Shown: positions 5,018-55,571 of the stretch, piece by piece
How positions within the stretch are numbered: position 1 is the stretch's first letter
Layout: every line of letters starts with the position of its first letter
Assembly: GCA_017623575.1 (NCBI GenBank)
Contig: JAGAOS010000005.1
Coordinates: 14,350-78,349, forward strand
Direction: 5' to 3'
DNA length: 64,000 nucleotides
DNA from: Clostridia bacterium
Lineage (GTDB): Bacteria; Bacillota; Clostridia; Oscillospirales; Acutalibacteraceae
Made by a program: the position numbers and the translations under genes
The notes under the pieces: generated by a model
The model's input: only the letters and a program-made list of their open reading frames with translations
Told to the model about the DNA's origin: nothing
Database searches by the model: none

Positions 5018-5064
5018 TTATCAATAAATACCCTCCTTTTTCTTTTAAACGTACGTTTGTTTGA

Positions 5065-6343: not shown

Positions 6344-6351
6344 AATTAACC

Positions 6352-7848: not shown

Positions 7849-7887
7849 AGTTATTGCTCCTTTTGGGATTTGTTTTATCATATCACA

Positions 7888-8028: not shown

Positions 8029-8030
8029 GG

Positions 8031-8077
8031 TCTAGGCATCTAGTATCCAGTATCTAGTATCCAGCATCTAGCATCTT
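8031..8077. repeat. Three tandem 14-bp repeats of approximate unit catctagtatccag
   Basis: Reads tctagg catctagtatccag tatctagtatccag catctagcatctt, in the intergenic region between GH-like paralogs C and B. Confidence 0.7.
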
Positions 8078-8151
8078 AAAAAGGCGTCACCAAACAAAAG
8101 CATATAGCTTTGCTTGGCAACACCTCTTTTCAAATGAACATTACTTAATTT

Positions 8152-40254: not shown

Positions 40255-40268
40255 TTCTTTGTAATGTT

Positions 40269-40428
40269 GATAGAGGTTGCGGTGTTTATCAGTAATCCTT
40301 TTAAAAGTGGGGTAACACTATGGGACGAAAGGAAACATCGCCGAAGCAGATTTGATTTTACCATTCGGTCATTTTTGCTGGTTTATTGCAAAATATGTAA
40401 TAAACTGTCACTTATGTGGAGCGCTATC
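40269..40428 (+). promoter_or_regulatory. Lysine riboswitch (L box) aptamer
   Basis: Ordered conserved L-box elements are present: GATAGAGGTTGCG, CAGTAA, GTGGGG, GAAAGG, CGCCGAAGCA, TTGCTGG, AACTGTCA and a closing GGAGCGCTATC. It aligns by eye to the B. subtilis lysC leader. Confidence 0.85.
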
Positions 40429-40450
40429 TTATGACAAATCCCCGCACTTT

Positions 40451-40485
40451 GTCACGGTAGCCATACCGTGGCTTATTTTATTTTT
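40451..40485 (+). terminator. Riboswitch expression-platform terminator
   Basis: Stem gtcacggta / taccgtggc followed by ttattttattttt, immediately before the GGAGG RBS of the transporter gene. Confidence 0.7.
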
Positions 40486-40497
40486 GGAGGTAAAAAA

Positions 40498-42135
40498 ATG
40501 ACAGCAAAAAAAATCATCCCTAAAGTGCTGATTGTTGCCTTTGTTGTTGGCTTTGGTGTTCTCTGCGCCTGTACAGGCAGTATCACAAGCCCCGTTGGCA
40601 CACTCTGGTCACTTTTTCCACCCGTAGTTGCAATTGGACTTGCGCTACTCACCAAAGAGGTTTACTCCTCACTTTTTGTAGGTATTGTTGTTGGCGGCTT
40701 GCTTGCAACAGGCTTTAACCCCTTAAAAACAATTGACGAGGTAACCACCACCGGCTTTATTGGTGCTGTTTCGGGTACCGCTGGTATTTTTGTTTTCCTT
40801 GTAATTCTGGGTATTATCGTTGCTTTACTTAATAAGGCAGGCGGCTCCAGAGCCTTTGGAGAATGGGCATCCAAGCACATAAAATCAAAAATCGGCGCTT
40901 CTATTGCAACCTTCTTCTTCGGTATACTTATTTTTATTGACGACTATTTTAACTGCCTTACAGTTGGTGCAGTTATGCGTCCCGTTACCGATAAAACCAA
41001 AATTTCCCGCGCTAAGCTGGCATACTTAATTGATGCTACCGCCGCCCCTGTATGTATGATAGCACCTATCTCATCCTGGGCAGCCGCAGTTGCTACCTAT
41101 ATTGATGTTCCCGAAGGAATGAGCGAAATTGGCATTTTCTGTCAGGCAATTCCTTACAACTTCTATTCGCTTTTAACCTTTGTTTTCGTAATAACACTCA
41201 CCCTTATGAAATTTGATTACGGCCCAATGAAATTGCACGAAATGAATGCTATGAAGGGTGACCTTTTTACAAGCGGTGAAAAGGTTGAAGCAAGAAGCGA
41301 AGAAGAACCCTCAACAGGCAAGGCTAAGGTTATTGACCTTATTGTTCCTATTGTAGTTCTTATTGTTATCTGCGTTATCGCACTTCCCTTTGTTGGCGCT
41401 AGCTTCGGCGGCGAGGATGGTGCTTTCGGTGCAGAGTATTATGATAGCTCTATAGGCTTTATTGAAGCTTTCTCAGCAACCGATGCAACCATTGCGCTCC
41501 CCTTAGGCGGAATTATTGCTTTAATTGCAGTTATTATTTACTTTATTGCAAGAAGACTTGTTTCCTTTAAAGAGGCTATGGATTGCATTCCCAAGGGCTT
41601 TATTGCTATGGTTCCCGCAATTTTAATTCTTACAATGGCTACCTCTCTTAAAAATATGACCGGTCTTTTAGATTCCGATACATTTGTTCAAGGCGCTCTT
41701 GCCTCGGCAGGTTCTTTACATAATTTCTTGCCCGCAATTATATTCCTTGTTGCTTGCGGAATTTCCTTTGCAACCGGTACATCTTGGGGTACATTCGGTA
41801 TTTTGTTACCAATAGTAATAGGCATATTCCCAATTGGCACCGCTGTAAGCTACATAGGTATGTCTGCTTGCCTTGCAGGTGCTGTTTGCGGTGACCATTG
41901 CTCACCTATTTCCGATACCACCATTATGTCCTCTGCGGGCGCTCAGTGCGACCACTTAAATCATGTGTCCACCCAGCTGCCCTACGCAATCACCGTTGCG
42001 GCAATATCATTTGTAAACTTCCTTATTGCTCCCTTTATTCAGAGCGCTTGGATTTGCCTGCCCATTGGTATTGTAATGACAGTTGCAGTTCTCTTTGTAA
42101 TTAAATTTGCAACAAAAAACAAAACCGTAGCTTAG
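40498..42135 (+). CDS. NhaC-family Na+/H+ antiporter-type transporter, probably a lysine transporter (LysW-like)
   Basis: ATG at 40498 with a GGAGG RBS. 545 aa, polytopic. Lysine riboswitches upstream of NhaC-type transporters are a known arrangement in Firmicutes. Confidence 0.8.
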   Translation: MTAKKIIPKVLIVAFVVGFGVLCACTGSITSPVGTLWSLFPPVVAIGLALLTKEVYSSLFVGIVVGGLLATGFNPLKTIDEVTTTGFIGAVSGTAGIFVFLVILGIIVALLNKAGGSRAFGEWASKHIKSKIGASIATFFFGILIFIDDYFNCLTVGAVMRPVTDKTKISRAKLAYLIDATAAPVCMIAPISSWAAAVATYIDVPEGMSEIGIFCQAIPYNFYSLLTFVFVITLTLMKFDYGPMKLHEMNAMKGDLFTSGEKVEARSEEEPSTGKAKVIDLIVPIVVLIVICVIALPFVGASFGGEDGAFGAEYYDSSIGFIEAFSATDATIALPLGGIIALIAVIIYFIARRLVSFKEAMDCIPKGFIAMVPAILILTMATSLKNMTGLLDSDTFVQGALASAGSLHNFLPAIIFLVACGISFATGTSWGTFGILLPIVIGIFPIGTAVSYIGMSACLAGAVCGDHCSPISDTTIMSSAGAQCDHLNHVSTQLPYAITVAAISFVNFLIAPFIQSAWICLPIGIVMTVAVLFVIKFATKNKTVA

Positions 42136-42600: not shown

Positions 42601-43440
42601 TTATTCGTTCACCTCGGTGGTGGTAGTAGGTTCGTCTGTAGTTTCCGAATTTTCGATTACAGACTGGGTTTCTGTGTTTTCCTGGGTGGTTGACGGATTT
42701 GCTGACACAGAATCAGTATCTTCTACATCCAGCTTAGTACCGCCTTGATTATCATCGGGTGCACTGGATTCATTGGAATCAGGCAAGTCTGACTGTGACT
42801 GCAAAACAGCATCGCAATCGGCTTCGGAAATGCCGTTAATAATCATAACTACCTTGTTTTTTCCAACATCCTCATTAGTAATATACAATCTATCATTTTC
42901 GCCGTTTTGTGCATAATCGGCGTAATATGAAGATGTTCCCCAATGAGAAGTAAAGGTAACAGTGGTGTCAGCAGTAGGCTTAAGCTGGAAGATTACCTTA
43001 TCGGTAAATCTACCTGAAACCGTTTCATCAGCGCCAATTTGCTGAGTATGGAAGGTATCTGCACAACCGAGGGCGGTAACTATACAAAAACCTGTTTTTG
43101 CCGTACTATCAACACTTTCGTTCAAAGTAACAGTATAAATTTTGCCTGCCATTAATTTTGCAGTGTATGAGGCATTGGGCAGTTTTTCAACTTCAATCGG
43201 GGTGGTGCTTCCATTTTCGGTTATGCTGATTACAGCATCTGCCTCAAAATTCGCCGCTTTAATAGTATTGAAGCCGGAGGTGATATCGTGAGAAAAATAG
43301 GCATATGCAGTAAAGCTCATACCAATCAAGCACAAAACAACAGTAACTACAGTTGCCACAACTCGCATAAGCATTGTTTTTTCACTGATTTTTTCATCCT
43401 TGGGTATGTAAAAATTCTCTTTATAAAAGCTTCTCACCAA
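42601..43440 (-). CDS. Secreted protein with a SipW-type signal peptide and an acidic S/T-rich tail
   Basis: 279 aa. After the TM segment comes SFTAYAYFSHDITS. The C-terminal 80 aa are rich in D, E, S and T. Confidence 0.55.
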   Translation of the reverse strand: MVRSFYKENFYIPKDEKISEKTMLMRVVATVVTVVLCLIGMSFTAYAYFSHDITSGFNTIKAANFEADAVISITENGSTTPIEVEKLPNASYTAKLMAGKIYTVTLNESVDSTAKTGFCIVTALGCADTFHTQQIGADETVSGRFTDKVIFQLKPTADTTVTFTSHWGTSSYYADYAQNGENDRLYITNEDVGKNKVVMIINGISEADCDAVLQSQSDLPDSNESSAPDDNQGGTKLDVEDTDSVSANPSTTQENTETQSVIENSETTDEPTTTTEVNE

Positions 43441-43471
43441 ATCAACCTCCTTTCTTAATTTTTACTGATAA

Positions 43472-44125
43472 TTAGGGCTTTTTTATTTGATCTGCCTTGA
43501 CGGTAATGCCAAGATCCACCTCAGGAATAGTATCCCCACGGTAGTTGGCAACATTATCAACCTCTTTAGGCATACGGACAATGAGTGCAATGTATTTTGT
43601 TTCACCGGGATTTAATACCGCAGTTTCGGTATCATAGTTATGTAAAGGCATATCTGCAAGCTTCACAGCTGCATTTCGGTCAATAACACTATTCTTCATT
43701 TCGTTTTCGCTATTGGCGGTTGTAATGCCGAATTTTAAATAATCCTGCAGCATAAAGCGCTGACCGAATACATTAGTTGCCTGAATGCAACCGTTCACAT
43801 TAACTGCTGTATAAAATTCAAAAGGCAGGGTGCCTTTGTTTTCTACTTTTAAATACACAACCTGCACATAGCCGGGTTCATATAACGCTTCTTCATCAAA
43901 AATCTTGGTCTGACTGTCAACCTCTTCCCATTTTCCATCAGTAAGACGGTGAGATACCACCAAATCAAACTCAGCAAAATGAAAAATATTATTAATTTCG
44001 GGCGAGGTATCGGTAAACCAGGCAAGAGAGGTGCCTGTACCAAAAATTCCCCAGATAATAAGTGCGCACAAAGTAAGGACTAAAGCGATTCTTTTATAGG
44101 GTTTTTTCTTTGCGATTTTTTTCAA
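43472..44125 (-). CDS. TasA/camelysin-like fibre subunit with a SipW-type signal peptide
   Basis: 217 aa, TTG start with an AGGAGG RBS. Contains GTSLAWFTDTSPE and later YEPGYVQVVYLKVENKGTLPFEFY, the TasA-like WEPG...V.N.G.L block. Confidence 0.7.
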   Translation of the reverse strand: MKKIAKKKPYKRIALVLTLCALIIWGIFGTGTSLAWFTDTSPEINNIFHFAEFDLVVSHRLTDGKWEEVDSQTKIFDEEALYEPGYVQVVYLKVENKGTLPFEFYTAVNVNGCIQATNVFGQRFMLQDYLKFGITTANSENEMKNSVIDRNAAVKLADMPLHNYDTETAVLNPGETKYIALIVRMPKEVDNVANYRGDTIPEVDLGITVKADQIKKP

Positions 44126-44138
44126 GCTTTATTCCTCC

Positions 44139-44822
44139 TTATTTGTTTTTTGGGATTTTTTCTACATTCTCCTTATTCTTTTTTCGCCATACCAAAAGAA
44201 TAATAATCGTTGCAAGTGAAATTACCATAACAGCAATCCAAAGACCAATATTACTGTTATCACCCGTTGCGGGAGGCTTGGGATCGCCTTCTTCAACAGG
44301 AAATTCTTCAATCATAAATTGCCAATCAAGATAACCGATTTCACTTTGAAATTCATTATCCATCTCAACGGGAACATTTAATGTTACATCCAGATTGACC
44401 TCACCGCCCGAATAAAGGGTGCCAAGGCATACCCAATTGGTGAGCCCTGCTGTTTCATTCGCTGCGGCATCGAACATATATGCCATTTTATTATCACTGC
44501 TCTTTTCAACCTTCAAACCGAGCTGTGAAAGAAACTCCACAGAATTCTCGTGAGCGCCGAGAGAGCGCATATAGATTTTTACCTTTACCTTATTATCCGC
44601 ATTGTTTTTTACAGTGATTTTTTGTGTTAAGGTATCACCGGGCATAACGCCCTTGAAATTTGGGAAAAGGTCGGTCAAAGAATACTCGCTTCCGGGCTCA
44701 AATACAAACTCACCTGCGTTGCCGCTATAGGTTACTCTGCCATCTGCCGCATATGCAGAAAACGCAAAAAGAAAGGTAATAATAAAAGTGACAAAAACTA
44801 TAACAAAATTTTTTCTTAGCAC
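44139..44822 (-). CDS. TasA-like-domain surface protein with a classical signal peptide and a sortase (S/P)PxTG sorting signal
   Basis: 227 aa with an SAYA-ADG cleavage-like site. NFKGVMPGDTLTQKITVKNN is a TasA-like block. The C-terminus reads PPATGD, then a TM segment (IGLWIAVMVISLATIIILLVW), then RKKNK. Confidence 0.65.
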   Translation of the reverse strand: MLRKNFVIVFVTFIITFLFAFSAYAADGRVTYSGNAGEFVFEPGSEYSLTDLFPNFKGVMPGDTLTQKITVKNNADNKVKVKIYMRSLGAHENSVEFLSQLGLKVEKSSDNKMAYMFDAAANETAGLTNWVCLGTLYSGGEVNLDVTLNVPVEMDNEFQSEIGYLDWQFMIEEFPVEEGDPKPPATGDNSNIGLWIAVMVISLATIIILLVWRKKNKENVEKIPKNK

Positions 44823-44834
44823 CTGAAATCACCT

Positions 44835-45407
44835 CTATGCTTCTTCAGCGGGCCAACCGGATGCGGTATAGGTATTACCATCGCTGATGGGGTTGTTTTC
44901 ACTTTGTACCGCCTGAGCCTTAACGGTAAGATTAAGGGTTTTACCAAGATAACTGTTATCCACCTTGGAGCCGACGATTTCCACATGGGAGAACACCGCA
45001 GGAGTGGTTTCACCTGGATTTACAATGCCTGTATAGTAAAACCATCCGTCGGTATGAAGCACCCAATGTCGCTCATCAATATTAAGCTTGAAGCAATCCT
45101 CAGAGGAAAGCTCCTTTGAGTCGATACCGTAAACCATCTTAACACGGAGATAGAAAGGATGCTCACAATCACTTTCGATACTGACCTTCTTGGAAACAAT
45201 ATCTCCGGGAACGATATACACGCCCTCCCTTGGAAACTCGGTTCCCTGATCGGTCATTTCGTGAATTATAAAACGAATATTTCCGGTGGTAACAACATTT
45301 GTGGCTGTTCCAATAGTGGAATAATATGCAAGTGTGGACTGACTCATAAAGGTAACAAGAGCAGCAATAATAGCAACGATTAATATTTTAAATTTTGTCT
45401 TGCCCAA
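44835..45407 (-). CDS. BsaA/TasA-family SipW-dependent matrix protein
   Basis: I take the start as the TTG at 45407 behind an AAGGAGG RBS; the track ORF starts at 45446. Contains QSTLAYYSTIG, PGDIVSKKVSIES and the C-terminal TVKAQAVQSENN typical of BsaA-type proteins. Confidence 0.65.
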   Translation of the reverse strand: MGKTKFKILIVAIIAALVTFMSQSTLAYYSTIGTATNVVTTGNIRFIIHEMTDQGTEFPREGVYIVPGDIVSKKVSIESDCEHPFYLRVKMVYGIDSKELSSEDCFKLNIDERHWVLHTDGWFYYTGIVNPGETTPAVFSHVEIVGSKVDNSYLGKTLNLTVKAQAVQSENNPISDGNTYTASGWPAEEA

Positions 45408-45442
45408 TATAATGTCCTCCTTTTGCAAGATTTTGCCTATCA

Positions 45443-45633
45443 GCAATCAAAAGACAAAAACTACTGCGTAGTTTTGAAGTAATAAGTAATAGTGAATAGG
45501 TAATAAGTTCGGTGTGCCTTCGGCACGAATTTATTTTGTCGGCTCTGCCGACGCCTTACTTCTTACCTCTTACCTTAAAATGCAAAGCATTTTTGCCCTT
45601 TGATTGCCGCCTATCCCCCTTACGAGGGATAGG
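45443..45633 (-). repeat. Hairpin-rich composite intergenic repeat, copy A (full length)
   Basis: The outer arms gcaatcaaaagacaaaaa / tttttgccctttgattgc enclose the hairpins ctac-tgc-gtag, gtgcc-ttc-ggcac, gtcgg-ctctg-ccgac and aaaatgc-aaa-gcatttt, plus a purine-rich arm facing a pyrimidine-rich arm. A trailing hairpin cctatccc...gggatagg follows. Confidence 0.8.
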
Positions 45634-45668
45634 AAGGGCTTTATGTGAATAAAACTATATTTCGTTAA

Positions 45669-47780
45669 TTAAAGTGTAGCAAGATATGCATTCCACTCTG
45701 CTACAGTATAGTTGGTACCATTGTAAACAATTGCGCCAACTGTTGCGCCATCTTCGATAACGAGCTTTTGAAGATTTGCTTTTGTGGCATACGCTGAGGA
45801 AGTACCGTAATCGACAACAAGCTTATCGATTGCAGTGCCTGCTTTGATAGTCACTTTGCCCCTGATGGGAGCAGCATAGATCGTATCAATTTCTGCGCCG
45901 TCGATAGTAACATTGGCATGACTCCAGCAGTAGATAGTGCCGTATTCACCGCCGTTAACGGTGGTAGTGGTGCCATTAGAAAAACCTGCATCCACTGGCA
46001 TAGCACCGTCGATCATAGCGGTAGTGCCTGTCATAACACAATTATTCAAGATTGCGTTGCCGTAATGTGAAAAACCGCAAGCAAGAGTAAAGCCCTTGTC
46101 TCCGTTTGCGAGAGTCGAAACAAGATCCTTTACAACGAGGTTATTGGCAACATAGTCGCCGCCGCCCAAACCGTAATGACCAAGCTCAACGAAACCGGCA
46201 CCTGTAACGGTCAAATCACTTACAGTTACGTCCTCGCCTGCTGAAGGAACAAATGCAACATAACCGTGATTACCAACGGAGGGATCTGCACCCTCGGTAG
46301 TAATGGTATTACCCATGCCGTTAAAATTGATCGCATCGGTCGTCTCTATAATCAATTGATTGTCCGGATCGGTGTTAACATATTCAATATCGGTAGCCAT
46401 GAATACATCTTTGCCGCTGGTAGCAGTGTTAAGAGCTTCTGCAGTAGCAACCACCTGTCCGCCTGCAACAACTTTATTATTGTTCAAAGTGGGAACATAG
46501 TTATCGGTTTCGTAGATATAATTACCCTGATCGCCTGCCTGGCAGTCGATGAAGTGACTGTTCTTGATTACAATGTTAAAGCTGCTTTCTTCTCTATCGT
46601 CGATAGCAATACCTGGTTTCTCAGAAAGAGGTCCGAATACACAATCGTCTACCACAACATTTGAAACCTCGCCTGCATACTGGTCACAAACCTTCAAGCC
46701 GCGAGTACCGCTGAAGTAGCAACCGGTAAAGGTAGCCTTGCCGTTATAAACCCATGCGCCATACATCGTGGTATTGCCATAAGTAGAAGAATCGTTATTG
46801 TGGCCGGAGAAGGTACAGTCTACAAAGGTAGACAGAGGACCGTCGGTCATAATACCGTCGTCAAATGCAACATTAACAAAGGTGTTATTGCCACCAAGTT
46901 CAAGATAGGTGAACTCCCAAGCATTCTCACCGTCTTCATAGGTGTAGAAAGTAGAGTCTACAACCTTCATGTTCTTCAGGTTGATGTTATCAAGACCGCC
47001 GCCGTGACCGGTAACGGTGATGGTAGCATCATCGGACGCACCAACCAGAGTGACACCGTTCATGTCTCTGTTTTTGCCTGCACGTTCTGCAGCCAATTCA
47101 ATGGCAGTGCCTTTGATGCCAATGATCTTTGCACCGCTTGCAAGAGCATCTTCTAACTCTTTGGTTGTGGTAGCAAGAACATCATAATATGTGGCATCCT
47201 TATCATACTGGTTGTTAAAGCTATCATTTTCGTGTGTTAGCTGAGTAGCATAAACAGCAACTGAAATGCCCTCAACCTTGAGATTCTGATATTCATTACC
47301 GGCATTTTCCTTCATATGACCGGTAAGAATAATTTCGCCAGATTTTTCATTAGGAAGCAATTTACCTTCGTAGGTGTACATATCAGTCTCAACACCATCC
47401 ACGGTAATAGTCCAATCAATTGCTTCGAGAAGTTTTGCATCACCAATAATGCCATTGATAACAAAGTTGTATTTCAAAGCTAATGTGCCTTTATTTACAA
47501 CATAGATAGGCTCCATTTTATAAGTGCATCCGGGTTCCCAAAGAATCTGATCTTGAGCACGATTATCAGCAGTAACGAACTCAATAACCTCACCCTCTAA
47601 TGAGTTACCGTCAGCATCAACCAAATCAACCCTTAAAGTACCGGACTTAATAATGTTACCCGAAGAGGTAACGGAGTCTGTGAACCAAGCAAAGGTGCTT
47701 CCAACGAGCATAGAAACACATACAATTAGTGACAAAGCACTCATAAGGAGAGCACGCTTGGTGGTTTTAGCTTTAGTCAT
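45669..47780 (-). CDS. Large fibre/adhesin protein: SipW-type signal, TasA-like N-domain and right-handed beta-helix passenger
   Basis: 703 aa. Contains GSTFAWFTDSVTS, ILWEPGCTYKMEPIYVVNKGTLALKYNF, then repeated beta-helix-like turns (VDCTFSG, FTGCYFSG, VDDCVFG, IKNSHFIDC). Confidence 0.7.
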   Translation of the reverse strand: MTKAKTTKRALLMSALSLIVCVSMLVGSTFAWFTDSVTSSGNIIKSGTLRVDLVDADGNSLEGEVIEFVTADNRAQDQILWEPGCTYKMEPIYVVNKGTLALKYNFVINGIIGDAKLLEAIDWTITVDGVETDMYTYEGKLLPNEKSGEIILTGHMKENAGNEYQNLKVEGISVAVYATQLTHENDSFNNQYDKDATYYDVLATTTKELEDALASGAKIIGIKGTAIELAAERAGKNRDMNGVTLVGASDDATITVTGHGGGLDNINLKNMKVVDSTFYTYEDGENAWEFTYLELGGNNTFVNVAFDDGIMTDGPLSTFVDCTFSGHNNDSSTYGNTTMYGAWVYNGKATFTGCYFSGTRGLKVCDQYAGEVSNVVVDDCVFGPLSEKPGIAIDDREESSFNIVIKNSHFIDCQAGDQGNYIYETDNYVPTLNNNKVVAGGQVVATAEALNTATSGKDVFMATDIEYVNTDPDNQLIIETTDAINFNGMGNTITTEGADPSVGNHGYVAFVPSAGEDVTVSDLTVTGAGFVELGHYGLGGGDYVANNLVVKDLVSTLANGDKGFTLACGFSHYGNAILNNCVMTGTTAMIDGAMPVDAGFSNGTTTTVNGGEYGTIYCWSHANVTIDGAEIDTIYAAPIRGKVTIKAGTAIDKLVVDYGTSSAYATKANLQKLVIEDGATVGAIVYNGTNYTVAEWNAYLATL

Positions 47781-47936
47781 TTTATTTTCTCCTTTTTATG
47801 CTGTCGGTGTAGATTTAAAGTTTTTTACCCACACACCGACATATGGGAATAACTATGCTTTTAACTTGTGTAAGGGAGCTTTTATAAAGCAATTAAACTA
47901 AAGTTCCTTTTTTGATGCTAGGCATCATTTGGGGGA

Positions 47937-48620
47937 TTATTTGCCCCAATAGTTAGTGAATGCGGCGCGTGCCTCTGTGCCGGTGTTATCAGCCTGAAGA
48001 GCCTCTGCCTTAACCTTAATGCTAAAGTCGCCACTAACATACTTCATATCTTCCTGCTCAAACTCACCGGGGATGGTTACATTGTTAAAAAGAACAGCTG
48101 TCTGATCCTCAACAAGTTTGGTGCGGAGATAGTACACATAGGTTACCTTGTTGTCAACATAGGTGGTAGCTGCATCATCAGCATACCAAGCATTAGCATC
48201 AACATCTAACCAAGTGCGAAGGTCGCTGGTGATACCCTGTGCGTCACAAGCAGCCTTAATGGTTGACCACTCATCAAAGGAAACATATACACGGATCCAC
48301 TGATCATAATCACCTGTATTCTCAACTGTAGGATTCTTGGGAAGCTTATCGCCGGGGGCGATTTCGGGATATGTATTACCGGCATGAGTAATTTCGGTAT
48401 CACCGTCATTATCAGCATCGGCATTGTTATCACCGTCATTCTCATTTTCCCATACCTCAACGCTGAAGTCGGGAGTACCGTCTCCGTCGCTATCGGCAAT
48501 TAAGAATTTATTGGTAATTTCATCAGCAGCATTGAACCATGCCAAAGTACCCATAGAAAGAATAGCAATAAGGCAAACTGCAAGAGCTGCAACAAACACC
48601 TTTTTCTTAGTTAATCTCAT
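47937..48620 (-). CDS. BsaA/TasA-family SipW-dependent matrix protein with an Asp-rich Ca-binding-like insert
   Basis: 227 aa. Contains MGTLAWFNAADEI, DSDGDGTPD...NDGDNNADADNDGDTE, PGDKLPKNPTVENTG and the C-terminal KVKAEALQADN. Confidence 0.65.
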   Translation of the reverse strand: MRLTKKKVFVAALAVCLIAILSMGTLAWFNAADEITNKFLIADSDGDGTPDFSVEVWENENDGDNNADADNDGDTEITHAGNTYPEIAPGDKLPKNPTVENTGDYDQWIRVYVSFDEWSTIKAACDAQGITSDLRTWLDVDANAWYADDAATTYVDNKVTYVYYLRTKLVEDQTAVLFNNVTIPGEFEQEDMKYVSGDFSIKVKAEALQADNTGTEARAAFTNYWGK

Positions 48621-48701
48621 TGTATTTTTCCTCCTTTCTTAAAGATTTTATTTCAAACTCGTGCCTGTCGGAATTCCTTTACAGGCGCGAATCGGAAACC
48701 G

Positions 48702-49325
48702 TTAGTTTTCGCTCTTTTTGCTTTCCATTTCGGCACGGAGCTGAGCAAGCTCGGCCTTCAGTTTTTCGTTTTCCTCCGCAGCAGTGTCAATTTCGGTCTG
48801 CACGGCGGAAGCTTCTTCGCCTTCATCATCTTTTTTCTTCTTACCAATCATATCGGGCAGAAAAACGGCGATGATCAAAATAACACCTATAGCAATGGTT
48901 ATGTACATACCGGGGGGATGCTGCACAAAGTCTGAAACATAGCCAAGCTTTGGAATAGAAAACTTAGGCACACCTATTACATTGTTATAATGAACGGGGG
49001 CTTGATCCTCCACCTGATTGGCATCACCCTTGGTATAAAAACGCTGATTTTCGGCATCCACACGAACAACGCGGTGGGTACCAATAGCCAAATCCTCATT
49101 AATAATAAAGGTTATTACATCCCCCGCCTTAATGGTGGCAGGGTCAACCTGTTTTACATAAATAAGATCCCCTACACTGTAATTAGGCTCCATACTGGGG
49201 GAAATAACGGTATAGCACTGATAGCCTATAAGCCGTGAGCCCATTAAAAATACGGCGCAAAAAACAATTACAATAACTAGTATGGTAGATACAATGTTCC
49301 ATACTTTTTTAAGGGTGTTATTCAT
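48702..49325 (-). CDS. sipW: Signal peptidase I, SipW (archaeal/ER) type, with a C-terminal TM segment and charged coiled-coil-like tail
   Basis: 207 aa. Contains ISPSMEP (catalytic Ser), GDLIYVK, THRVV (His) and TKGDANQVED, then a TM segment and the tail KKKKDDEGEE...NEKLKAELAQLRAEMESKK. Confidence 0.85.
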   Translation of the reverse strand: MNNTLKKVWNIVSTILVIVIVFCAVFLMGSRLIGYQCYTVISPSMEPNYSVGDLIYVKQVDPATIKAGDVITFIINEDLAIGTHRVVRVDAENQRFYTKGDANQVEDQAPVHYNNVIGVPKFSIPKLGYVSDFVQHPPGMYITIAIGVILIIAVFLPDMIGKKKKDDEGEEASAVQTEIDTAAEENEKLKAELAQLRAEMESKKSEN

Positions 49326-49340
49326 AAATGCATCTCCTTG

Positions 49341-49508
49341 TTACCTTCGGTAATAAGAACCTGACCTGTTACCGCAATCACAGATTGCGAACAGGTGCCC
49401 AGAACCTTGTTGCCTTTCGGCAATCAAAAGACAAAAATTACCTCTTACCTTAAAATGCAAAGCATTTTTGCCCTTTGATTGCCGCCTATCCCCCTTGCGA
49501 GGGATAGG
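49341..49508 (-). repeat. Hairpin-rich composite intergenic repeat, copy B (central part deleted, extra 5' module)
   Basis: Shares ttgcctttcggcaatcaaaagacaaaaa ... ttacctcttaccttaaaatgcaaagcatttttgccctttgattgccgcctatccccc with copy A. It also shares the module taataagaacctgacctgttaccgcaatcacagattgcgaacaggtgcccagaaccttgttgcc with copy C. Confidence 0.8.
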
Positions 49509-49554
49509 ACGGACTTTATTATCCGTTCATGCGGATAGTATTTATATTTTAAAA

Positions 49555-51570
49555 TTAGTAAACATCCACACCGTCAATAACAATGTTCAGATACTCTTTA
49601 GTCATAGAATTCTTGTTACCAACGATATTCTTGTAACCAACACACTTATCATTCTCAGCAAAGCCGTTAACGGTAGTATCGTTGATATAGATGTTGTACT
49701 TAGCACCAACACCGTCTACACCGGTTTCGAAAGCAGACTTAGTAAAGCCGGTGCCATTGGTGCGATCATTAAAGGTACAACCATCTACATAAACATCACA
49801 GGTCTGATTGTAAACAAGAATGGACTTACCATCGGTGTTAAAGGTGCAATTGTTGAACTTAACGTTTTTGCCACCCCAAGTCCAAATGTTGTAATAATCA
49901 CCTGTAACATTGAATGTACAGTTGTTGAACACACTTTCGCCATAGAGAGTGTATGAACCATTGAATGTACAGTTGTTATAAGTGGCTCTGCAACGCGCAT
50001 ATCCCGCATAAGTATGACCATCGGTGTTGATAGTAACACCCTCAAAGGTTACGGTTGAGCCATCAAGGCTATAGTCGCAACCCTCATAGGAGCCGTCGTT
50101 TTGGTTAGCTACAACAGTATTGCCGTTACCAACGATGGTAAGAGTCTTACCCTGAGCAGAATCAGGAATGATGTAGTTACCGGAGCCCAAAACCACAGTA
50201 GATGCACCATTAGCAATAGCAGTATCAAACTGAGTATTGTTCTTTACCTGAACAGCCTCGGTTGCATCGCTGCCATCGGCTGCATCACCAAGGATTTTAA
50301 CTTGATAGTCCTGAGCAGAAGACTGTGCAGCATAAACTCTTGCAGCTACGGTAGCGTTTTTAACATAAATAACCAAAGGATTGGAATATCCTGTATCCTG
50401 ATGAGTTGCAAACTGACCGCCGCCTTCAAACTTAACATCATCACCCAAAAGATAGATGCTGGTGAGGTTCGGGCAAGAACGGAATACATAGTTAGCAAGT
50501 GTAGGATTGCCTTTGATGGTAACGGTGGTCAGGTTTGCCATATCTCTGAACGCACCCTCATCAATCATCTTAACGCTTGCAGGAATGGTAAGTTTAGACA
50601 TACCTGTTAGTCTAAAGGCCTGCTCACCAATGTATTCAAGAGTTGACGGGAAATTGATCGATTTAAGAGTTGACATATTGATTGCTCTTGCATTGATTTC
50701 CTTAACACCCTCAGGAAGAGTGATACTCTCAACAGAAGAATACTTGCTGAATACCGGTCCGTTGGTATCATTCTTATCTTTAGCAATACCAATCATAGTT
50801 ACATCGTCCGGCACGGTAAAGGTTGTGCCTACATTTCCATAAGGAACACTTCTGAGCACTACATTACCATCGTTAAGGTAGTAATAGGTGTTGCCGTCGA
50901 TAACCTTGATGTGCTTATCAGGAACATCGATATCATCGTAGTTCTCGTCAAAGCTGTCTTTCTCAACATTGTCCTGAGTAGCCATCAAAACAACCTTGAA
51001 ATCAGAACCGATAGAAAGTCCCTGATACTCGTTGCCGGCAGTTTCCTGCATTTTAAGGGCAATGGTTACGGTGTCAGCGGTATTTGCTTTAAGGTCGCCG
51101 GCCATATTAGCAGGCATACCGTCCAAAATATCGCTTAAAGTACCAACTTTGGTGAGTTCAGTCATTTCTCTGCTTGCCAAAGTATATTCACCCTCAGCGA
51201 AATACACGTCGATAACATCAGCGAGTTCACTAACTTCGCCATTCGCTGCAATGTTAAGGTTGTATTTGAGAGCCAAAGTGCCGACATTGCTGATTTTAAT
51301 GTTCTTTGCCTCAACATAGCCGGGCTCCCAAAGATCGTAATTAAAGATTGCACCGGCAGAAGCATCTTTGTAAACCTGCTGTGCACCGGTTGGGGTTGCA
51401 TCCTTCCACTCCATTGTTACGTCAAGAGTACCGGACTTAATAATGTTACCTGCGGAAGTAACGCTGTCTGTGAACCAAGCGAATGTGCTACCAACCAACA
51501 TAGATATGCACACAAGCAAGGACAAGGCGCTGAACAGCAAAGCGCGCTTGGTTGATTTTTGCTTTGTCAT
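49555..51570 (-). CDS. Large fibre/adhesin protein: SipW-type signal, TasA-like N-domain, BspA-type LRR and beta-helix passenger
   Basis: 671 aa. The N-terminal 45 aa are nearly identical to the 703-aa protein. The LRR-like region reads ITLPEGVKEINARAI...INFPSTLEYIGEQAF...LTIPASVKMIDEGAF. NCTFN repeats occur near the C-terminus. Confidence 0.7.
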   Translation of the reverse strand: MTKQKSTKRALLFSALSLLVCISMLVGSTFAWFTDSVTSAGNIIKSGTLDVTMEWKDATPTGAQQVYKDASAGAIFNYDLWEPGYVEAKNIKISNVGTLALKYNLNIAANGEVSELADVIDVYFAEGEYTLASREMTELTKVGTLSDILDGMPANMAGDLKANTADTVTIALKMQETAGNEYQGLSIGSDFKVVLMATQDNVEKDSFDENYDDIDVPDKHIKVIDGNTYYYLNDGNVVLRSVPYGNVGTTFTVPDDVTMIGIAKDKNDTNGPVFSKYSSVESITLPEGVKEINARAINMSTLKSINFPSTLEYIGEQAFRLTGMSKLTIPASVKMIDEGAFRDMANLTTVTIKGNPTLANYVFRSCPNLTSIYLLGDDVKFEGGGQFATHQDTGYSNPLVIYVKNATVAARVYAAQSSAQDYQVKILGDAADGSDATEAVQVKNNTQFDTAIANGASTVVLGSGNYIIPDSAQGKTLTIVGNGNTVVANQNDGSYEGCDYSLDGSTVTFEGVTINTDGHTYAGYARCRATYNNCTFNGSYTLYGESVFNNCTFNVTGDYYNIWTWGGKNVKFNNCTFNTDGKSILVYNQTCDVYVDGCTFNDRTNGTGFTKSAFETGVDGVGAKYNIYINDTTVNGFAENDKCVGYKNIVGNKNSMTKEYLNIVIDGVDVY

Positions 51571-51672
51571 ATAAATGACCTCCTTATTTTATTTTGCCAA
51601 CGCTCAAAAGTGGATAACCGCACCGCGCTGACCGTTGACTTAACGCACGGAACGATTGGTAGATTTTTAATA

Positions 51673-51954
51673 TTGCCTTTCGGTAATAAGAACCTGACCT
51701 GTTACCGCAATCACAGATTGCGAACAGGTGCCCAGAACCTTGTTGCCTTCGGCAATCAAAAGACAAAAAACTACTGCGTAGTTTTGAAGTAATATGTAAT
51801 AGTGAATAGGTAATAAGTTCGGTGTGCATTAGGCACGAATTTATTTTGTCGGCTCTGCCGACACCTTACTTTTTCACTATTACCTCTTACTTATTACCTC
51901 AAAACCGCAACGCGGTTTTTGCCCTTTGATTGCCGCCCATCTGAAAGGGATGGG
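51673..51954 (-). repeat. Hairpin-rich composite intergenic repeat, copy C (full length plus 5' module), within the 5' leader of the 671-aa gene
   Basis: Same architecture as copies A and B, but two hairpins have different sequences that still pair: aaaaccgc-aa-gcggtttt replaces aaaatgc-aaa-gcatttt, and cccatc-tgaaag-gatggg replaces cctatccc...gggatagg. Confidence 0.8.
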
Positions 51955-52036
51955 ACGGCGTGAGGTGAAAATGTTCGAAGCCGTGATATATTTTATTACC
52001 ACGCTCAACATAGGGATAAGCTATATAGTAATAGAA

Positions 52037-52267
52037 TTAATACTTTACAAATGGGATTAGTGATAACCACAATCTCCTTCTTTTATGTATCCAGTACCGC
52101 CGTTCCGAACCATCGGTGCGCTCGATTTCCATATTGATATATTCCAGTTCCTGTAAAAATTCTTTAATGAACAAGCATAAACCAACAAGCAATCCAATAA
52201 AAATCGGAACAGCAATAATTCCTATAAGTATCCAAAATGTGGTATCCAAATTATTTGCTTCGGGCAT
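52037..52267 (-). CDS. Small single-TM membrane protein
   Basis: I take the start as the ATG at 52267 (MPEANNLDTTFWILIGIIAVPIFIGLLVGL...) behind an AGGAGA RBS; the track ORF extends further upstream. Confidence 0.45.
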   Translation of the reverse strand: MPEANNLDTTFWILIGIIAVPIFIGLLVGLCLFIKEFLQELEYINMEIERTDGSERRYWIHKRRRLWLSLIPFVKY

Positions 52268-52400
52268 CGCTATCTCCTGTTTCTTCGCTGGCGGGGGTGG
52301 GGGTAGTGCGGTTTTGTTTGGAATTGTTGATACTAAAAACGGCACAAATCATAAAACCGATAATACCGCCCACAACAAATCCAATAAAAAAATTCAACAT
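52251..52400 (-). CDS. Possible 49-aa hydrophobic peptide (DUF3789-like, recalled from memory)
   Basis: MLNFFIGFVVGGIIGFMICAVFSINNSKQNRTTPTPASEETGDSDARSK. It falls below the ORF-track size cut-off and overlaps the next start by about 17 nt. The RBS is weak. Confidence 0.3.
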   Translation of the reverse strand: MLNFFIGFVVGGIIGFMICAVFSINNSKQNRTTPTPASEETGDSDARSK

Positions 52401-52438
52401 TGGGTTTCAACTACTTTCTATAAGTAAGGGGACTATAA

Positions 52439-53188
52439 TTACTCTGTTTCTGCACCCGTAGTAGTATCGGATACAGTATCATCAGATGCAATGGTGGCAG
52501 TTTCTGCAACTGCTTCATCAGGCTGTTTGCCCTCCAACTGAGCTTTAAGTGCTTTAAGCTCCTCAAGCATCTTGGCGTTTTCTGCCTTTTCTGCTTCAAT
52601 TTTATCCTTTTCAGCCTGCATTTCTTCCATCTGCTCTTTTTTATAGCGGCGGAACAGGTTGAAGAATTTAACACCTTCATACAAAATAATCAGCATAAAT
52701 GGGGTGAAAATACAAACGAAATATCCGGGGGTGGTCTTTAAAAAGTTAAAGAAGGTTCCAAGGCCGGGAATGGCGCTTGAATATTTACCCAAAACATAAG
52801 GGTAGGTTACAATGGTTTCATCATCCACACCGGTGGTGGTACCATAGGTAACAAATCCGGGATTACCCTCAGCATCGGTGGTGAGAGTGCGGATTTTATG
52901 GGTTATGGTTTCGCCGAAGCTGTTGGTATCCTGTGACATAAAGGTGATGATGTCGCCCGCTTTAAGGGTGGAGGGATCAACCTCTTTTACAAGAATCAAG
53001 GAGCCTGCATCAAAATCGGTAGCTGCCATTGAATCTGTATTTACTATGTACATCTTAATACCAAACAGATCTCTGTCATTGCGGTTAAAGGTGGTAACCG
53101 AGATAACGGTAAATATCATCATAGATACCGCAAGTAGAACAATCAGCCATATGATTGTTATTTTAATAATGTTAAATGCTTTTTTCAC
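52439..53188 (-). CDS. sipW: Second, divergent SipW-type signal peptidase I with a long coiled-coil-like tail
   Basis: 249 aa, GTG start. Contains NTDSMAA (Ser), GSLILVKEVDPSTLKAGDIITF (matches B. subtilis SipW closely) and ITHKI (His). YGTTTGVDDE replaces the KGDAN block. A TM segment follows, then KKEQMEEMQAEKDKIEAEKAENAKMLEELKALKAQLEG. Confidence 0.75.
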   Translation of the reverse strand: MKKAFNIIKITIIWLIVLLAVSMMIFTVISVTTFNRNDRDLFGIKMYIVNTDSMAATDFDAGSLILVKEVDPSTLKAGDIITFMSQDTNSFGETITHKIRTLTTDAEGNPGFVTYGTTTGVDDETIVTYPYVLGKYSSAIPGLGTFFNFLKTTPGYFVCIFTPFMLIILYEGVKFFNLFRRYKKEQMEEMQAEKDKIEAEKAENAKMLEELKALKAQLEGKQPDEAVAETATIASDDTVSDTTTGAETE

Positions 53189-53208
53189 AATATACCCTCT
53201 CTTTGCTT

Positions 53209-53823
53209 TTATTTTTCAAAAACGGTCTCCGCTGCCTCTTTATTGCTCCAGGAAAGCTGCGTACCAATTGCCGAATAAATGACCGAAAAAACCTCTTCTG
53301 CTGTTTCTTCGTCATCCGGAATTTCGGCACGCAAAATTTTAATAATGGTGGAGTAAACAATATCGAGTATGCGATTTAACACACGCCAAACATCCGTACT
53401 TTTTTTGAAAGCGGGGGTGAAACTTTCTATAACCCTGCAATACGCCCTTCTTCTGTCTATAGGAGAATAGGAATTGTAATAGTGAGAATAATAGTACTTG
53501 ATAAAGAAAGAGCATTTTTCTCTGTCGGAAACAATATTCTTCCAACAGCTTCTGAAGAATATATGACATCTTTCATCAATATCAATTCCTTTTATATTCA
53601 TAATCGGTACATACTTTAGAATACAAGCAATAAGCTCATTATCAATTTCGGTAAAGGTAGCAGCAAATAAATCATCCTTATCCTTAAATACCCTATAAAT
53701 ATATGCCTCGTTAATGCCTGAATGGGTTGCTATTGCTTTTGTGGTGGCTTTGTGAATGCCGTCGGCGGCAACTATGTGGATGGTGCTGTCAATAAATTTT
53801 TGACGCATATACGACTGTTCCAT
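53209..53823 (-). CDS. TetR/AcrR family transcriptional regulator
   Basis: I take the start as the ATG at 53823 behind a GGAGGA RBS. The N-terminal HTH reads FIDSTIHIVAADGIHKATTKAIATHSGINEAYIYRVFKDKDDLF. Confidence 0.8.
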   Translation of the reverse strand: MEQSYMRQKFIDSTIHIVAADGIHKATTKAIATHSGINEAYIYRVFKDKDDLFAATFTEIDNELIACILKYVPIMNIKGIDIDERCHIFFRSCWKNIVSDREKCSFFIKYYYSHYYNSYSPIDRRRAYCRVIESFTPAFKKSTDVWRVLNRILDIVYSTIIKILRAEIPDDEETAEEVFSVIYSAIGTQLSWSNKEAAETVFEK

Positions 53824-53873
53824 TTTCTTTCCTCCGGTTCGTAAGTGTTTACTACAAATTTTAGAAAAATAAT

Positions 53874-53892
53874 ACAAACGCTGAACGTTTGT
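53874..53892. promoter_or_regulatory. Palindromic operator candidate upstream of the TetR gene
   Basis: acaaacg-ctgaa-cgtttgt has 7-bp inverted arms and lies about 50 nt upstream of the TetR start. Confidence 0.4.
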
Positions 53893-53970: not shown

Positions 53971-54201
53971 TTAAGGTTTAATAATAGGTTCGACATTTAT
54001 AATGCTTTCTTTGGCACACCGCTTACATTTAATCGGTAGATTTTTAATCTCAGTGTCGGGAAGTAACCAGAGCACTGTATGCTTTCCGCATATGGGACAA
54101 AAAAATCTTCGTCGCTCTGTTTTAGTATCGTTTTCTGTTATTTTATTCTGTAATGCTTTTTCCAAATTAGGATCACCTCGGTTTTGGCTCAATTGCATCA
54201 A
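53971..54201 (-). CDS. Cysteine-rich KTR-domain-like small protein
   Basis: FFCPICGKHTVLWLLPDTEIKNLPIKCKRCAKESIINV matches the CPxCG...NFPLxCxxC pattern of KTR proteins found on Firmicutes mobile elements. The real start may be the TTG at 54165 behind GAGGTGA. Confidence 0.6.
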   Translation of the reverse strand: MMQLSQNRGDPNLEKALQNKITENDTKTERRRFFCPICGKHTVLWLLPDTEIKNLPIKCKRCAKESIINVEPIIKP

Positions 54202-54419: not shown

Positions 54420-54444
54420 ATCACATAATGGGTATTATGTTGTA
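54420..54444 (+). repeat. Core-type recombination site 2 (dif-like)
   Basis: atcacataatgggtattatgttgta is a perfect 25-bp inverted repeat of site 3. Confidence 0.7.
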
Positions 54445-54680
54445 CGAACAGCCGAAACTAGCATACTTCGTTACTTCATCAGTAGCAATGATTATAGCAT
54501 AGTTTGTTGAAAAAAGCAAGTAATTTTTAATAAAAAATAAGATTTACATAAAAACAACAGATTTTGGGCGTAGTGAAGGAGACCTTTTGTTTAATTTTTT
54601 CAAAAGGTCATCTTTGTTATACTTTATTTACATATATTAAAGCATCTAATAATGGTAAATCTCCTTTATTTATTAAGTTT

Positions 54681-54705
54681 TACAACATAATACCCATTAT
54701 GTGAT
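54681..54705 (-). repeat. Core-type recombination site 3 (dif-like), inverted relative to sites 1 and 2
   Basis: tacaacataatacccattatgtgat is the reverse complement of site 2. It lies 24 nt from the recombinase stop codon. Confidence 0.7.
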
Positions 54706-54728: not shown

Positions 54729-55571
54729 TTATATTATCAATCGCATATTCTCCATACGGCGCTGATGCTCTGCACCGGTGGTAATTATATAAATACGAGT
54801 TGTATTTATATTGGAATGACCAAGAATATCCGCCAGCTTTGCAATATCCTTTTCAATGCCGTAAAAAGTGCGAGCAAAAAGATGTCTGAGATTGTGCGGA
54901 AAAACCTTTTGCGGCGAAACACCGGCTTCTTCACACAGTTCCTTCATTTGCCGCCATATATTACTACGGTCAAGCGGCTTTCCGTTTTTGGTTACAAACA
55001 ATATTCCGGTAGTAATACCCTGTTCTGCGGCATACCGAAGCAGCTTCTTTTTCAAAGCCTTGACAATGAATATTTTTCTTGTTTTACCCTTACAAGAAAC
55101 CTCTGCCTCCCCTCGCCTGACAGCCTCCACAGTTATATATTGCAACTCACTAACACGAATGCCTGTTCCACAGATTGTCTGTACCACAAGGGACAGCCGT
55201 TCGTTTTTCTTTTGCTCAGCCGCTCTGACAAGGGCTGTGTATTCCGCCCTGGTAAGCTCCTTTTCCTCAGAACAGTAGGCTTCGTTTTGAAGCTTGAACT
55301 GCTTTACACATAAATCATTCCAGCCGGCAAATCTAAAAAAGGCATTCAATGCCGCCAGCATTGAGTTGGTGCTTCTTATGGCGTACTTTTCGGCTAAGGC
55401 GCCCTTGTACTCCAACACCATTGCTTTATTTGGTATATTCCCATCTGCATAATCTGCAAAAAAATGAATATCTCGCATATATTTTTGAATGGTTGCTTCT
55501 GTCTTTTCATTTTCGGTAAGATATTTTTTAAAGTCATTTATAATTTTTAAGGTAATAATAGTTTTTTTCAT
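54729..55571 (-). CDS. Tyrosine site-specific recombinase (XerC/XerD-like integrase family)
   Basis: 280 aa. N-terminal SAM-like core-binding domain. Catalytic residues are R in GTGIRVSEL, HxxR in HNLRHLFARTF, and H...Y in LGHSNINTTRIY. Confidence 0.9.
   Translation of the reverse strand: MKKTIITLKIINDFKKYLTENEKTEATIQKYMRDIHFFADYADGNIPNKAMVLEYKGALAEKYAIRSTNSMLAALNAFFRFAGWNDLCVKQFKLQNEAYCSEEKELTRAEYTALVRAAEQKKNERLSLVVQTICGTGIRVSELQYITVEAVRRGEAEVSCKGKTRKIFIVKALKKKLLRYAAEQGITTGILFVTKNGKPLDRSNIWRQMKELCEEAGVSPQKVFPHNLRHLFARTFYGIEKDIAKLADILGHSNINTTRIYIITTGAEHQRRMENMRLII

Follow-up and report, generated by a model that had tools for sequence, protein, structure and literature searches.

A fibre operon with three copies of a hairpin-rich element

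The stretch of DNA analysed here, called the window, comprises 64,000 nucleotides (nt) of contig JAGAOS010000005.1 from a Clostridia bacterium of the family Acutalibacteraceae. Open reading frames (ORFs) and Pfam and NCBIfam matches delimit on its minus strand a SipW/TasA(BsaA)-type fibre operon (42601..53877), and three copies of a hairpin-rich element, named A, B and C, lie within its intergenic gaps, all on the coding strand. In transcript order, the genes encode a TetR-family regulator (53209-53877), a SipW-like signal peptidase of 249 aa (52439-53188) and a 76-aa membrane protein (52037-52267), after which copy C is found. Between copies C and B stands a 671-aa fibre protein (49555-51570), camelysin/TasA-like at its N-terminus and furnished with BspA-type leucine-rich repeats; then come a SipW of 207 aa (48702-49325), a 227-aa protein (47937-48620), a 703-aa fibre protein (45669-47780), copy A and, as the last four genes, BsaA/TasA-like proteins of 190, 227, 217 and 279 aa. 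Matches of the operon proteins to Peptidase_M73, TIGR04088 (SipW-dependent signal peptide), TIGR04090 (BsaA family) and the SipW models make "fibre genes", the label used in the original prediction, a reasonable one.

Copy A (45433-45633) occupies the gap between the 703-aa fibre gene and the 190-aa BsaA-family gene, copy B (49341-49508) the gap between the 671-aa fibre gene and the SipW gene, and copy C (51673-51954) the gap between the 76-aa gene and the 671-aa fibre gene. The 22-mer TTTTTGCCCTTTGATTGCCGCC, one arm of the closing helix, occurs exactly three times in the window (45590, 49465 and 51916), where none is expected by chance, and its partner arm GCAATCAAAAGACAAAAA is found at 45443, 49420 and 51752. 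All three regions are much more stably folded than shuffled sequences, with z-scores of -6.8 to -8.3. Exact arm matches and folding thus both bear out the proposal of three copies between fibre genes.

A repeat finder and a three-way alignment describe the copies as mosaics. The two arms of the closing helix are 129 nt apart in A, 27 nt in B and 146 nt in C, so that the short interior attributed to copy B is real. The interior common to A and C amounts to 120 nt at 93% identity, and A and B have 82 nt in common at 96% identity. Copies B and C share a further 96-nt 3′ module (49346-49441 and 51679-51774, repeat family D11), and a 50-nt exact repeat lies within their 3′ accessory modules at 49357 and 51690. 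The ranges first given for B and C include an extra 3′ module (49341-49409 and 51673-51742, respectively), which is absent from A. The compensatory stem changes announced for copy C are present in the sequence, with aaaaccgc/gcggtttt in place of aaaatgc/gcatttt, and cccatc/gatggg in place of cctatccc/gggatagg.

Read along the messenger, each copy contains three hairpins (HP), HP1, HP2 and HP3, of which HP2 is the closing helix. The hairpin described as trailing in the original prediction is HP1; it exists, but it is the leading one on the coding strand. In copy A, HP1 (45610..45633) is a GC-rich 10-bp hairpin with a GUAA loop that begins 35 nt past the stop codon of the 703-aa gene. HP2 (45443..45607) is an 18-bp helix formed by an RNA 5′ arm at 45607-45590 and a 3′ arm at 45460-45443, with a hairpin-rich apex of 129 nt (45461-45589); its arms are paired at 18 of 18 positions on the minus strand, two of them G-U, against 16 of 18 on the plus strand. 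HP3 (45433..45446), UUGCU-GAU-AGGCAA, has its UUGC in common with the 3′ arm of HP2, and a Shine-Dalgarno sequence followed by the TTG start (45407) of the 190-aa BsaA-family gene lies 3′ of it.

In copy B, HP1 (49485..49508, GCAA loop) is found 46 nt past the stop codon of the 671-aa gene, and HP2 (49420..49482), with its 27-nt apex (49438-49464), is the top match in the window, at 72.8 bits, for the covariance model described below. HP3, which is uugccGAAAggcaa (49410-49423), and the 3′ accessory module together cover 49341..49423. Two hairpins are found in the module, GCAAUC..GAUUGC and UUACC-GAA-GGUAA, the latter adjoining the Shine-Dalgarno sequence of the SipW gene (ATG at 49325). In copy C, HP1 (51936..51954, CCCAUC/GAUGGG) lies 3′ of the 76-aa gene, HP2 (51752..51933) has a 146-nt apex (51770-51915), and HP3 is again followed by the 3′ accessory module (51673..51755 for the two), the same as in copy B. 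The minus-strand loops are cGUAAg in A, cGCAAg and uugccGAAAggcaa in B, and uugccGAAggcaa, a three-base loop, in C.

The element is confined to one type of operon

Relatives were sought by an exact 18-mer scan of one genome per species, over 185,579 species. It returned 54 loci (designated below by L numbers), among which 16 are true copies, recognised by the partner arm and an adjacent hairpin, and 38 are chance matches. All 16 true copies come from metagenome-assembled genomes (MAGs) of Clostridia (Acutalibacteraceae, Oscillospiraceae, Faecousia and 'Eubacteriales'), and all are in sense orientation. According to tblastn with the window proteins, at least 15 of them sit in the same operon type at homologous junctions; L023 gave weak matches only. 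Two MAGs had two matches each, in both cases on one contig and inside the operon. Homologues of the 249-aa peptidase number more than 7,400 at E <= 1e-20, this operon type being very abundant in gut and rumen metagenomes, and the contigs reached through five such homologues added six further lineages, with several strains each. A scan of JGI metagenomes with a degenerate 19-mer gave 52 loci and one true copy (L075), while a scan of viral contigs gave 32 loci, all chance matches and none matched by the covariance model. About 41 distinct copies were gathered in total, from roughly 20 Oscillospirales lineages belonging to at least two bacterial families, Acutalibacteraceae and Oscillospiraceae.

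Applied to the window, the covariance model finds the three copies only, and none in the other ~50 kb; applied to the 38 chance-match loci, it finds no match. In the lineages compared, the element is placed 3′ of every large fibre gene and of the 76-aa gene, at 2 to 5 sites per operon, and the gene that comes after it is a fibre gene, sipW or a BsaA-like module. We conclude that the element is specific to the SipW/TasA(BsaA)-type operon and is not dispersed. The search for further copies that had been advised, by sequence and by covariance model, was therefore productive, and none of the copies found is scattered outside this operon type.

The conserved core is smaller than the composite

Across relatives, the conserved core is smaller than the hairpin-rich composite seen in the window, and consists of HP1, two bases, the 18-bp HP2 and, often, HP3. 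HP1 is GC-rich, 5 to 11 bp long, and ends exactly 2 nt (CG) ahead of HP2 in 31 of 33 copies. Its stems have at least 17 different sequences and its loops are of generic stable types (GCAA, GUAA, UUCG, CUCG): for HP1, structure alone matters. GNRA loops, to which the original prediction had drawn attention, are genuine in the leading hairpins of A and B, not in that of C, and they are not conserved in the leading hairpin of relatives; they are common in the third hairpin only. An extension of HP1 by 3-4 bp (CCG-U...CGG) was considered and dropped, as the 'GUCCA' subtype does not keep it.

HP2 hardly varies in its lower nine AU-rich pairs (GCAAUCAAA/UUUGAUUGC); its upper nine pairs covary. The six pairs that never vary are all within the lower nine, and some compensatory changes are seen in the lower stem as well (GCAAGCAGAG/CUCUGCUUGC, GCAAGC/GCUUGC and GUAAUC/GAUUAC). 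Position 10 is a G-U pair in 25 of 31 copies. The length of the tip varies from 5 to 272 nt across copies, and is 5-12 nt in most species (L014, L023, L109, L120, L125, L126, L129, L132). The long hairpin-rich interior of 118-146 nt, with its purine and pyrimidine arms, is confined to one subclade (the window, L005, L006, L007, L010, L012, L032, L036, L037, L049, L051, L075 and L119), and we conclude that it is an accessory, dispensable expansion of the HP2 tip. The folding energy of this long interior shows no bias towards either strand. Of the composite architecture first proposed, the closing helix is therefore the conserved part, and the interior an addition. A reading of the interior as a promoter (TTGAAG-17-TAGGTA in the purine arm) was rejected, the spacing not being conserved (L049) and the consensus scan giving no support.

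HP3, UUGCY-loop-RGCAA, is built on the last five bases of HP2, and is consequently in competition with the bottom 5 bp of that helix. A 5-bp HP3 is present in 25 of 41 copies, compared to 8.3 +/- 2.5 in shuffled tails, and it covaries (UUGCC/GGCAA, UUGCU/AGCAA, UUACC/GGUAA). In the copies ahead of sipW, a Shine-Dalgarno sequence is found 2 to 15 nt past HP3.

The folded molecule is the mRNA-sense strand

Pairing was examined in a structure-fitted alignment of 31 distinct copies, covering the outer 6 bp of HP1 and the 18 bp of HP2. On the sense strand, 98.1% of the cells pair, and changes on both sides are observed in 12 of the 24 pairs (67 cells). Not one of 500 shuffles matched any of the five measures observed, and sliding the partners by 1 to 3 columns brought pairing down to 42-54%. 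For the reverse complement of the same alignment, pairing was 90.2%, as some 60 G-U wobbles of the sense strand, at no fewer than 5 separate positions, turn into A-C mismatches on the other strand. A covariance model built on natural short-form copies likewise scored 60-86 bits in sense and 26-50 bits in antisense at identical sites. These gaps in pairing and in score indicate that the folded molecule is the mRNA-sense strand, as had been argued from the three copies of the window.

With Rfam 15 at the gathering threshold, nothing was found on the copies, the only match in the window being a lysine riboswitch elsewhere. In E-value mode, the best match on a copy was IMES-4, with 28 bits for a threshold of 48 (E = 0.22). 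No Rfam match was obtained for the short-form copies in L109 either, and a scan for tRNA and tmRNA found none. The element thus belongs to no RNA family in Rfam, in line with the original prediction. We conclude that it represents a previously undescribed family, defined by its sequence, within an already known class of RNA signals located inside operons.

A candidate signal for transcript processing and stabilisation

The reading that we tentatively place first, by analogy with characterised operons and with somewhat less than even confidence, is that the element punctuates a polycistronic mRNA for selective RNA processing and stabilisation (SRPS). The HP1/HP2 pair would be recognised by an endoribonuclease, by analogy RNase Y, which would cleave in the pair or close to it. 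Of the two products, the upstream one, with the fibre gene, would have its 3′ end shielded by HP1, and the downstream one its 5′ end by HP2; the modules of one long phase-variable transcript could then reach different steady-state levels. A contribution may also come from some leaky termination within the U-rich 3′ arm of HP2. The intercistronic attenuator or stabiliser initially suggested is the role that fits best, and it is from structure, position and analogy that we infer cleavage, stabilisation and termination at the element.

The closest likeness is with IR4 of the cip-cel operon of Ruminiclostridium cellulolyticum. There, mutagenesis showed that a small stem-loop, for which structure and not sequence matters, is followed by a large one, in which the bottom AT-pair region is needed for cleavage and sets the cut site, while the upper part is unimportant; the cut between the two stem-loops stabilises the downstream transcript, and RNase Y is the suspected enzyme (PMC10311766). 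The intergenic stem-loops found at processing sites in C. cellulolyticum mostly lack U tracts, and set transcript ratios (PMC4423207). In addition, a preprint describes stem-loops as moving with their genes in operon evolution (bioRxiv 10.1101/2021.06.12.447814). An HP1 constrained in structure only, a lower HP2 constrained in sequence and pairing, and a free upper HP2 reproduce the pattern of constraints of IR4, and this is why we rank SRPS first. In both cases the stem-loops lie between genes of one long operon for subunits of an extracellular assembly, U tracts are lacking, and a small structure-only stem-loop precedes a large one with crucial bottom AT pairs. Like SRPS signals, the element forms stable stem-loops on the mRNA strand, in intergenic positions within an operon, where no sense-strand terminator is called; in the three window copies, no U tract follows HP1. 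It differs from them in that SRPS stem-loops are mutually unrelated in sequence, whereas here one homologous family is used 2 to 5 times per operon and kept, with a nearly invariant 9-bp lower stem, across at least two families; processing, known for IR4, is predicted for the element.

A second likeness is with the C. perfringens sipW-bsaABCRSD operon, of the same kind (SipW with TasA/BsaA-like matrix fibre proteins), in which a structure 3′ of bsaA gives rise to an abundant 1.4-kb transcript and a 7.3-kb read-through transcript (PMC7395162). The two cases share a structure after a fibre gene, with which a short abundant and a long read-through transcript are associated in C. perfringens, and bimodal ON/OFF expression. 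They differ in that no canonical U tract follows HP1 here, that several junctions are concerned, including the one ahead of sipW, and that ON/OFF control proceeds here via promoter inversion.

Several observations nevertheless sit poorly with an SRPS signal. The 2-nt spacing between HP1 and HP2 leaves little single strand for RNase Y. In L007, the 76-aa gene and the first fibre gene are separated by a gap of 24 nt devoid of the element, meaning that the element is not obligatory at every junction. The near invariance of the lower HP2 stem exceeds the needs of a generic stabiliser, and hints at a specific partner; among the operon proteins, however, Pfam and NCBIfam matches reveal no RNA-binding protein.

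Among the biofilm and adhesion structures of Firmicutes, fibres of the SipW/TasA(BsaA) type are major ones. A sequence-defined element reused at module boundaries offers a handle on subunit ratios in a phase-variable transcript of ~11 kb, and its AU-rich lower stem could be a recognition site for clostridial mRNA processing, a determinant that the SRPS field is now without. The covariance model can be used for annotating such operons.

Other RNA-level readings

Alternatively, the element may be a leaky intrinsic terminator or attenuator, made of the upper HP2 hairpin and of the U tract in the lower 3′ arm (UUUUGAUUGC), at which some transcripts would end past each fibre gene. The upper HP2 hairpin of short-form copies (-2 to -13 kcal/mol) is followed by UUUGAUUGC, and is weakly terminator-like. 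The terminator found after bsaA in the homologous C. perfringens operon allows read-through (PMC7395162), and U-rich stem-loops of this kind can also serve as terminators (PMC10311766). The consensus scan, however, called no sense-strand terminator at HP2, be it in the window or in L109, and in the long forms of the window the last hairpin ahead of the U-rich arm has 2 G-C pairs only. Moreover, the compensatory changes GCAAGCAGAG/CUCUGCUUGC in the lower stem keep pairing while cutting the U content, which argues that the full helix is under selection, and not the U tract alone. Termination as the main function seems rather unlikely to us.

A binding site for a trans-acting factor, protein or RNA, that would control all modules together is also unlikely, although the near invariance of the lower HP2 stem and the G-U pair at position 10 keep a specific partner in play. 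The competition between HP2 and HP3 would then act as a switch for translation or read-through of the next gene. HP3 overlaps the 3′ arm of HP2, covaries with it and exceeds its frequency in shuffled tails, and the position of the Shine-Dalgarno sequence just past HP3 ahead of sipW also speaks for such a switch. On the other hand, HP3 is missing in about a third of the copies, the operon encodes no candidate binding protein, and neither a terminator/antiterminator pair nor a ligand pocket is evident. The PyrR loops of the pyr operon and the ANTAR/EutV sites of the eut operon are cases in which one conserved hairpin motif is repeated in leader and intercistronic regions. The element resembles them by its several copies of one conserved hairpin motif inside a single operon, but each of their sites is coupled to a terminator/antiterminator and their binding protein is encoded, two features not found here.

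Recombination at the element

Comparison of closely related sequences reveals rearrangements with their ends in the element. In L119 (~97% DNA identity to the window), the left part of copy C is joined to the right part of copy B and the 671-aa gene is missing. In L174 (99.7-100% identical to the window), B is joined to A and the sipW, 227-aa and 703-aa genes are missing; in L175 (97.5% identical), C is joined to A. The contigs L174 and L175, both metagenomic, are short, however, and the join in L174 could be an assembly error due to an exact repeat of 57 nt. As for L119, it comes from an assembly with k=141, in which a repeat shorter than k should not mis-join, and its arrangement is the common one in other species (L012, L125, L126, L132). 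The operon of L135 stops inside HP2 where L133, 99.6% identical, carries on. Finally, L134 differs from L133 (97% identical) by a block made of the fibre-gene C-terminus, HP1 and HP2, and its element has 98% identity to an element of another species (L012). As direct repeats, the copies therefore mark the places where fibre-gene modules disappear, arrive or are exchanged. The deletions are explained by ordinary homologous recombination, the direct repeats being 57-146 nt long and 93-100% identical. These repeats tie a putative RNA-level regulation to the diversification of the adhesin repertoire between close strains.

Side observations on the fibre genes themselves are that the first 144 nt of the 703-aa and 671-aa genes (47637-47780 and 51427-51570) are 76% identical, the two proteins having paralogous N-termini and differing C-terminal parts, and that the second fibre gene has 37-43% identity across species, compared to 62-87% for its neighbours.

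Could the element then be a DNA recombination site at module boundaries, functioning as folded hairpins or palindromes? It would be either integron-like, via the adjacent tyrosine recombinase, or a place of palindrome-provoked breakage. The junctions of the variants of near-identical strains (L119, L174, L175 and L135), the joint swap of fibre-gene C-terminus and element in L134, and the tyrosine recombinase and promoter at the head of the array speak for such a site. We regard it as improbable all the same: homologous recombination between direct repeats already accounts for the deletions, the L174 and L175 variants are subject to the reservation made above, and junctions that never vary have a conserved element too. 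Furthermore, the recombinase has a proven target of its own, in unrelated inverted repeats (see below), and is not an integron integrase (52 bits with TIGR02249, for a cut-off of 265).

The stronger proposal, that beyond RNA punctuation the elements are the folded-hairpin recombination sites of an integron-like platform, is still less probable. If true, promoterless fibre or adhesin modules, each ending in a palindromic site, would stand behind one invertible promoter, and would be excised, captured or exchanged to give the C-B, B-A and C-A variants; the transfer between species of a fibre gene together with its element would be explained as well. Integron attC sites carry, at the base of the folded site, the R''/R' core sites RYYYAAC ... 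GTTRRRY. Here the base of HP2 is GCAATCAAAG ... CTTTTGATTGC in nearly all copies, and HP2 contains no RYYYAAC/GTTRRRY boxes and no R''/R' core sites. The likeness to attC lies in an imperfect palindrome at the 3′ end of a gene unit, with a conserved stem base and a tip of very variable length, in strand-asymmetric folding, in the tyrosine recombinase and promoter at the head of the array, and in units that are present or absent between strains. The differences are the lack of an R/L box consensus, an Xer-like recombinase instead of IntI, with a different proven target, and backbone genes that are syntenic instead of forming a random cassette array.

Inverted interiors

Relative to the neighbouring HP1, arms and downstream gene, L012 and L075 have their long interior in reverse complement: its identity to the other interiors is 0.77-0.84 when reverse-complemented, versus 0.61-0.70 in direct orientation. 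Inversion thus concerns 2 of the 14 long-form copies, possibly 3 with L049, which is equivocal, across species. As the HP2 arms are 18-bp inverted repeats flanking a segment, the layout is that of an inverton, and the interior might be an invertible segment whose orientation would gate read-through, like that of C. difficile cwpV. Besides the two inverted interiors, this idea draws on an inner hairpin, GTCGGC..GCCGAC, which is followed by a T/C-rich run and was flagged as terminator-like on the post-flip sense strand. We find it very doubtful. The two inverted interiors have 96% mutual identity, and may stem from a single event; folding energy gives the interior no strand preference; no flip was seen among 21 same-species contigs, all short-tipped; and the tips of 5-12 nt found in most species are too short for inversion by a recombinase. 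Besides, hairpin loops between inverted repeats are known to invert spontaneously, as a neutral process.

Last among the alternatives, a selfish structured miniature transposable element or REP-like repeat, which the original prediction had listed, would be modular and hairpin-forming, with terminal inverted repeats and several copies of differing length, as observed, but it can practically be dismissed, as all copies share operon type, orientation and homologous intergenic positions, neither the viral loci nor the remaining ~50 kb of the window contain any, and the two MAGs with two matches have both inside the operon on one contig. BOX of pneumococcus and REP of enterobacteria are modular intergenic repeats dispersed genome-wide in both orientations. 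Like these, the element is modular and hairpin-forming and varies in length by gain or loss of modules, and BOX and REP can stabilise mRNA; unlike them, it is confined to one operon and one strand.

The promoter switch upstream of the operon

Ahead of the operon lies an invertible promoter segment (54421..54703, minus strand), bounded by inverted repeats of ~23 bp at 54703-54681 and 54443-54421. The repeats are near-palindromic, of the ACATAATGGGTATTATGT type, with CACATAATGGGTATTATGTTGTA at 54703-54681 and the inverted copy at 54443-54421. In the window, the promoter TTGCTT-17-TATAAT carried by the segment points into the operon. The homologous 286-bp segment of L109 (6883-7168) is inverted in 4 of 10 contigs of one species, which are at least 98.6% identical. 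The segment is thus a genuine, active switch, and the fibre operon is phase-variable. In sequence, the switch is unrelated to the hairpin element, from which it is separate.

Next to it, a 280-aa Xer-like tyrosine recombinase gene (54729..55571, minus strand) is syntenic with the operon in other species. Its product scored 52 bits with TIGR02249 (cut-off 265) and higher with XerA, XerC and XerD, no cut-off being passed. That the HP2 arms are targets of this recombinase was rejected as the main reading, since it has its own inverted repeats and a flipping promoter and since short tips are the norm. HP2 DNA as an operator for the TetR-family regulator was also rejected: nothing similar is found near the promoter, and as much as 272 bp can separate the arms.

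Further observations were made around the switch. A third copy of the recombinase site (54380-54359) is in direct orientation to the right-hand repeat, and between the two a terminator-like hairpin with a U run is found (54417-54399, minus strand), which might for instance be a terminator that is excisable or subject to an alternative inversion; the layout is the same in L109. Four independent assemblies of one species (L121-L124) all break ~550 nt 5′ of the TetR gene, at the invertible promoter, and mixed promoter orientations in the samples would produce this shared break. In L126-L131, a 373-aa integrase (Phage_int_SAM_3 + Phage_integrase) takes the place of the 280-aa recombinase, on the opposite strand in L131. 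Between the invertible promoter and the TetR gene, the window contains an ORF of ~64 codons with two CxxC pairs, zinc-ribbon-like (~53971-54165, minus strand); L109 has no room for it at the equivalent position.

Other features of the operon and of the window

Large fibre genes have, between the element and their start, a second conserved leader (51571-51672 in the window, 9318-9430 in L109), also present in the tails of L014_6329 and L120_9249. Among its features are a hairpin of the GCGUUAAGUCAACGG type and a AACCGCCUCC...GGGAG...CGGUU pairing, and it may be a separate RNA motif. Ahead of a fibre gene, a small ORF of ~32 codons (MK..Q..KCTTGG...) with a run of 8-9 G is found in L109 (12668-12766) and on the reverse strand of L049, 3′ of the element at reverse-strand position 4185. 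Judging from its sequence, this homopolymer could permit slipped-strand phase variation.

The lysine riboswitch mentioned above (RF00168, 99.8 bits) is located at 40263-40434 on the plus strand, directly 5′ of a Na+/H+ antiporter-family gene (40468-42135). The regions 2595-9918 and 11700-13100 of the window contain internal direct-repeat families that are unrelated to the element. Three paralogous genes have 69-79% nucleotide identity and are spaced by ~3.7 kb and 1.8 kb, and a gene coding for 1691 aa has tandem-like repeats of 540-600 nt.

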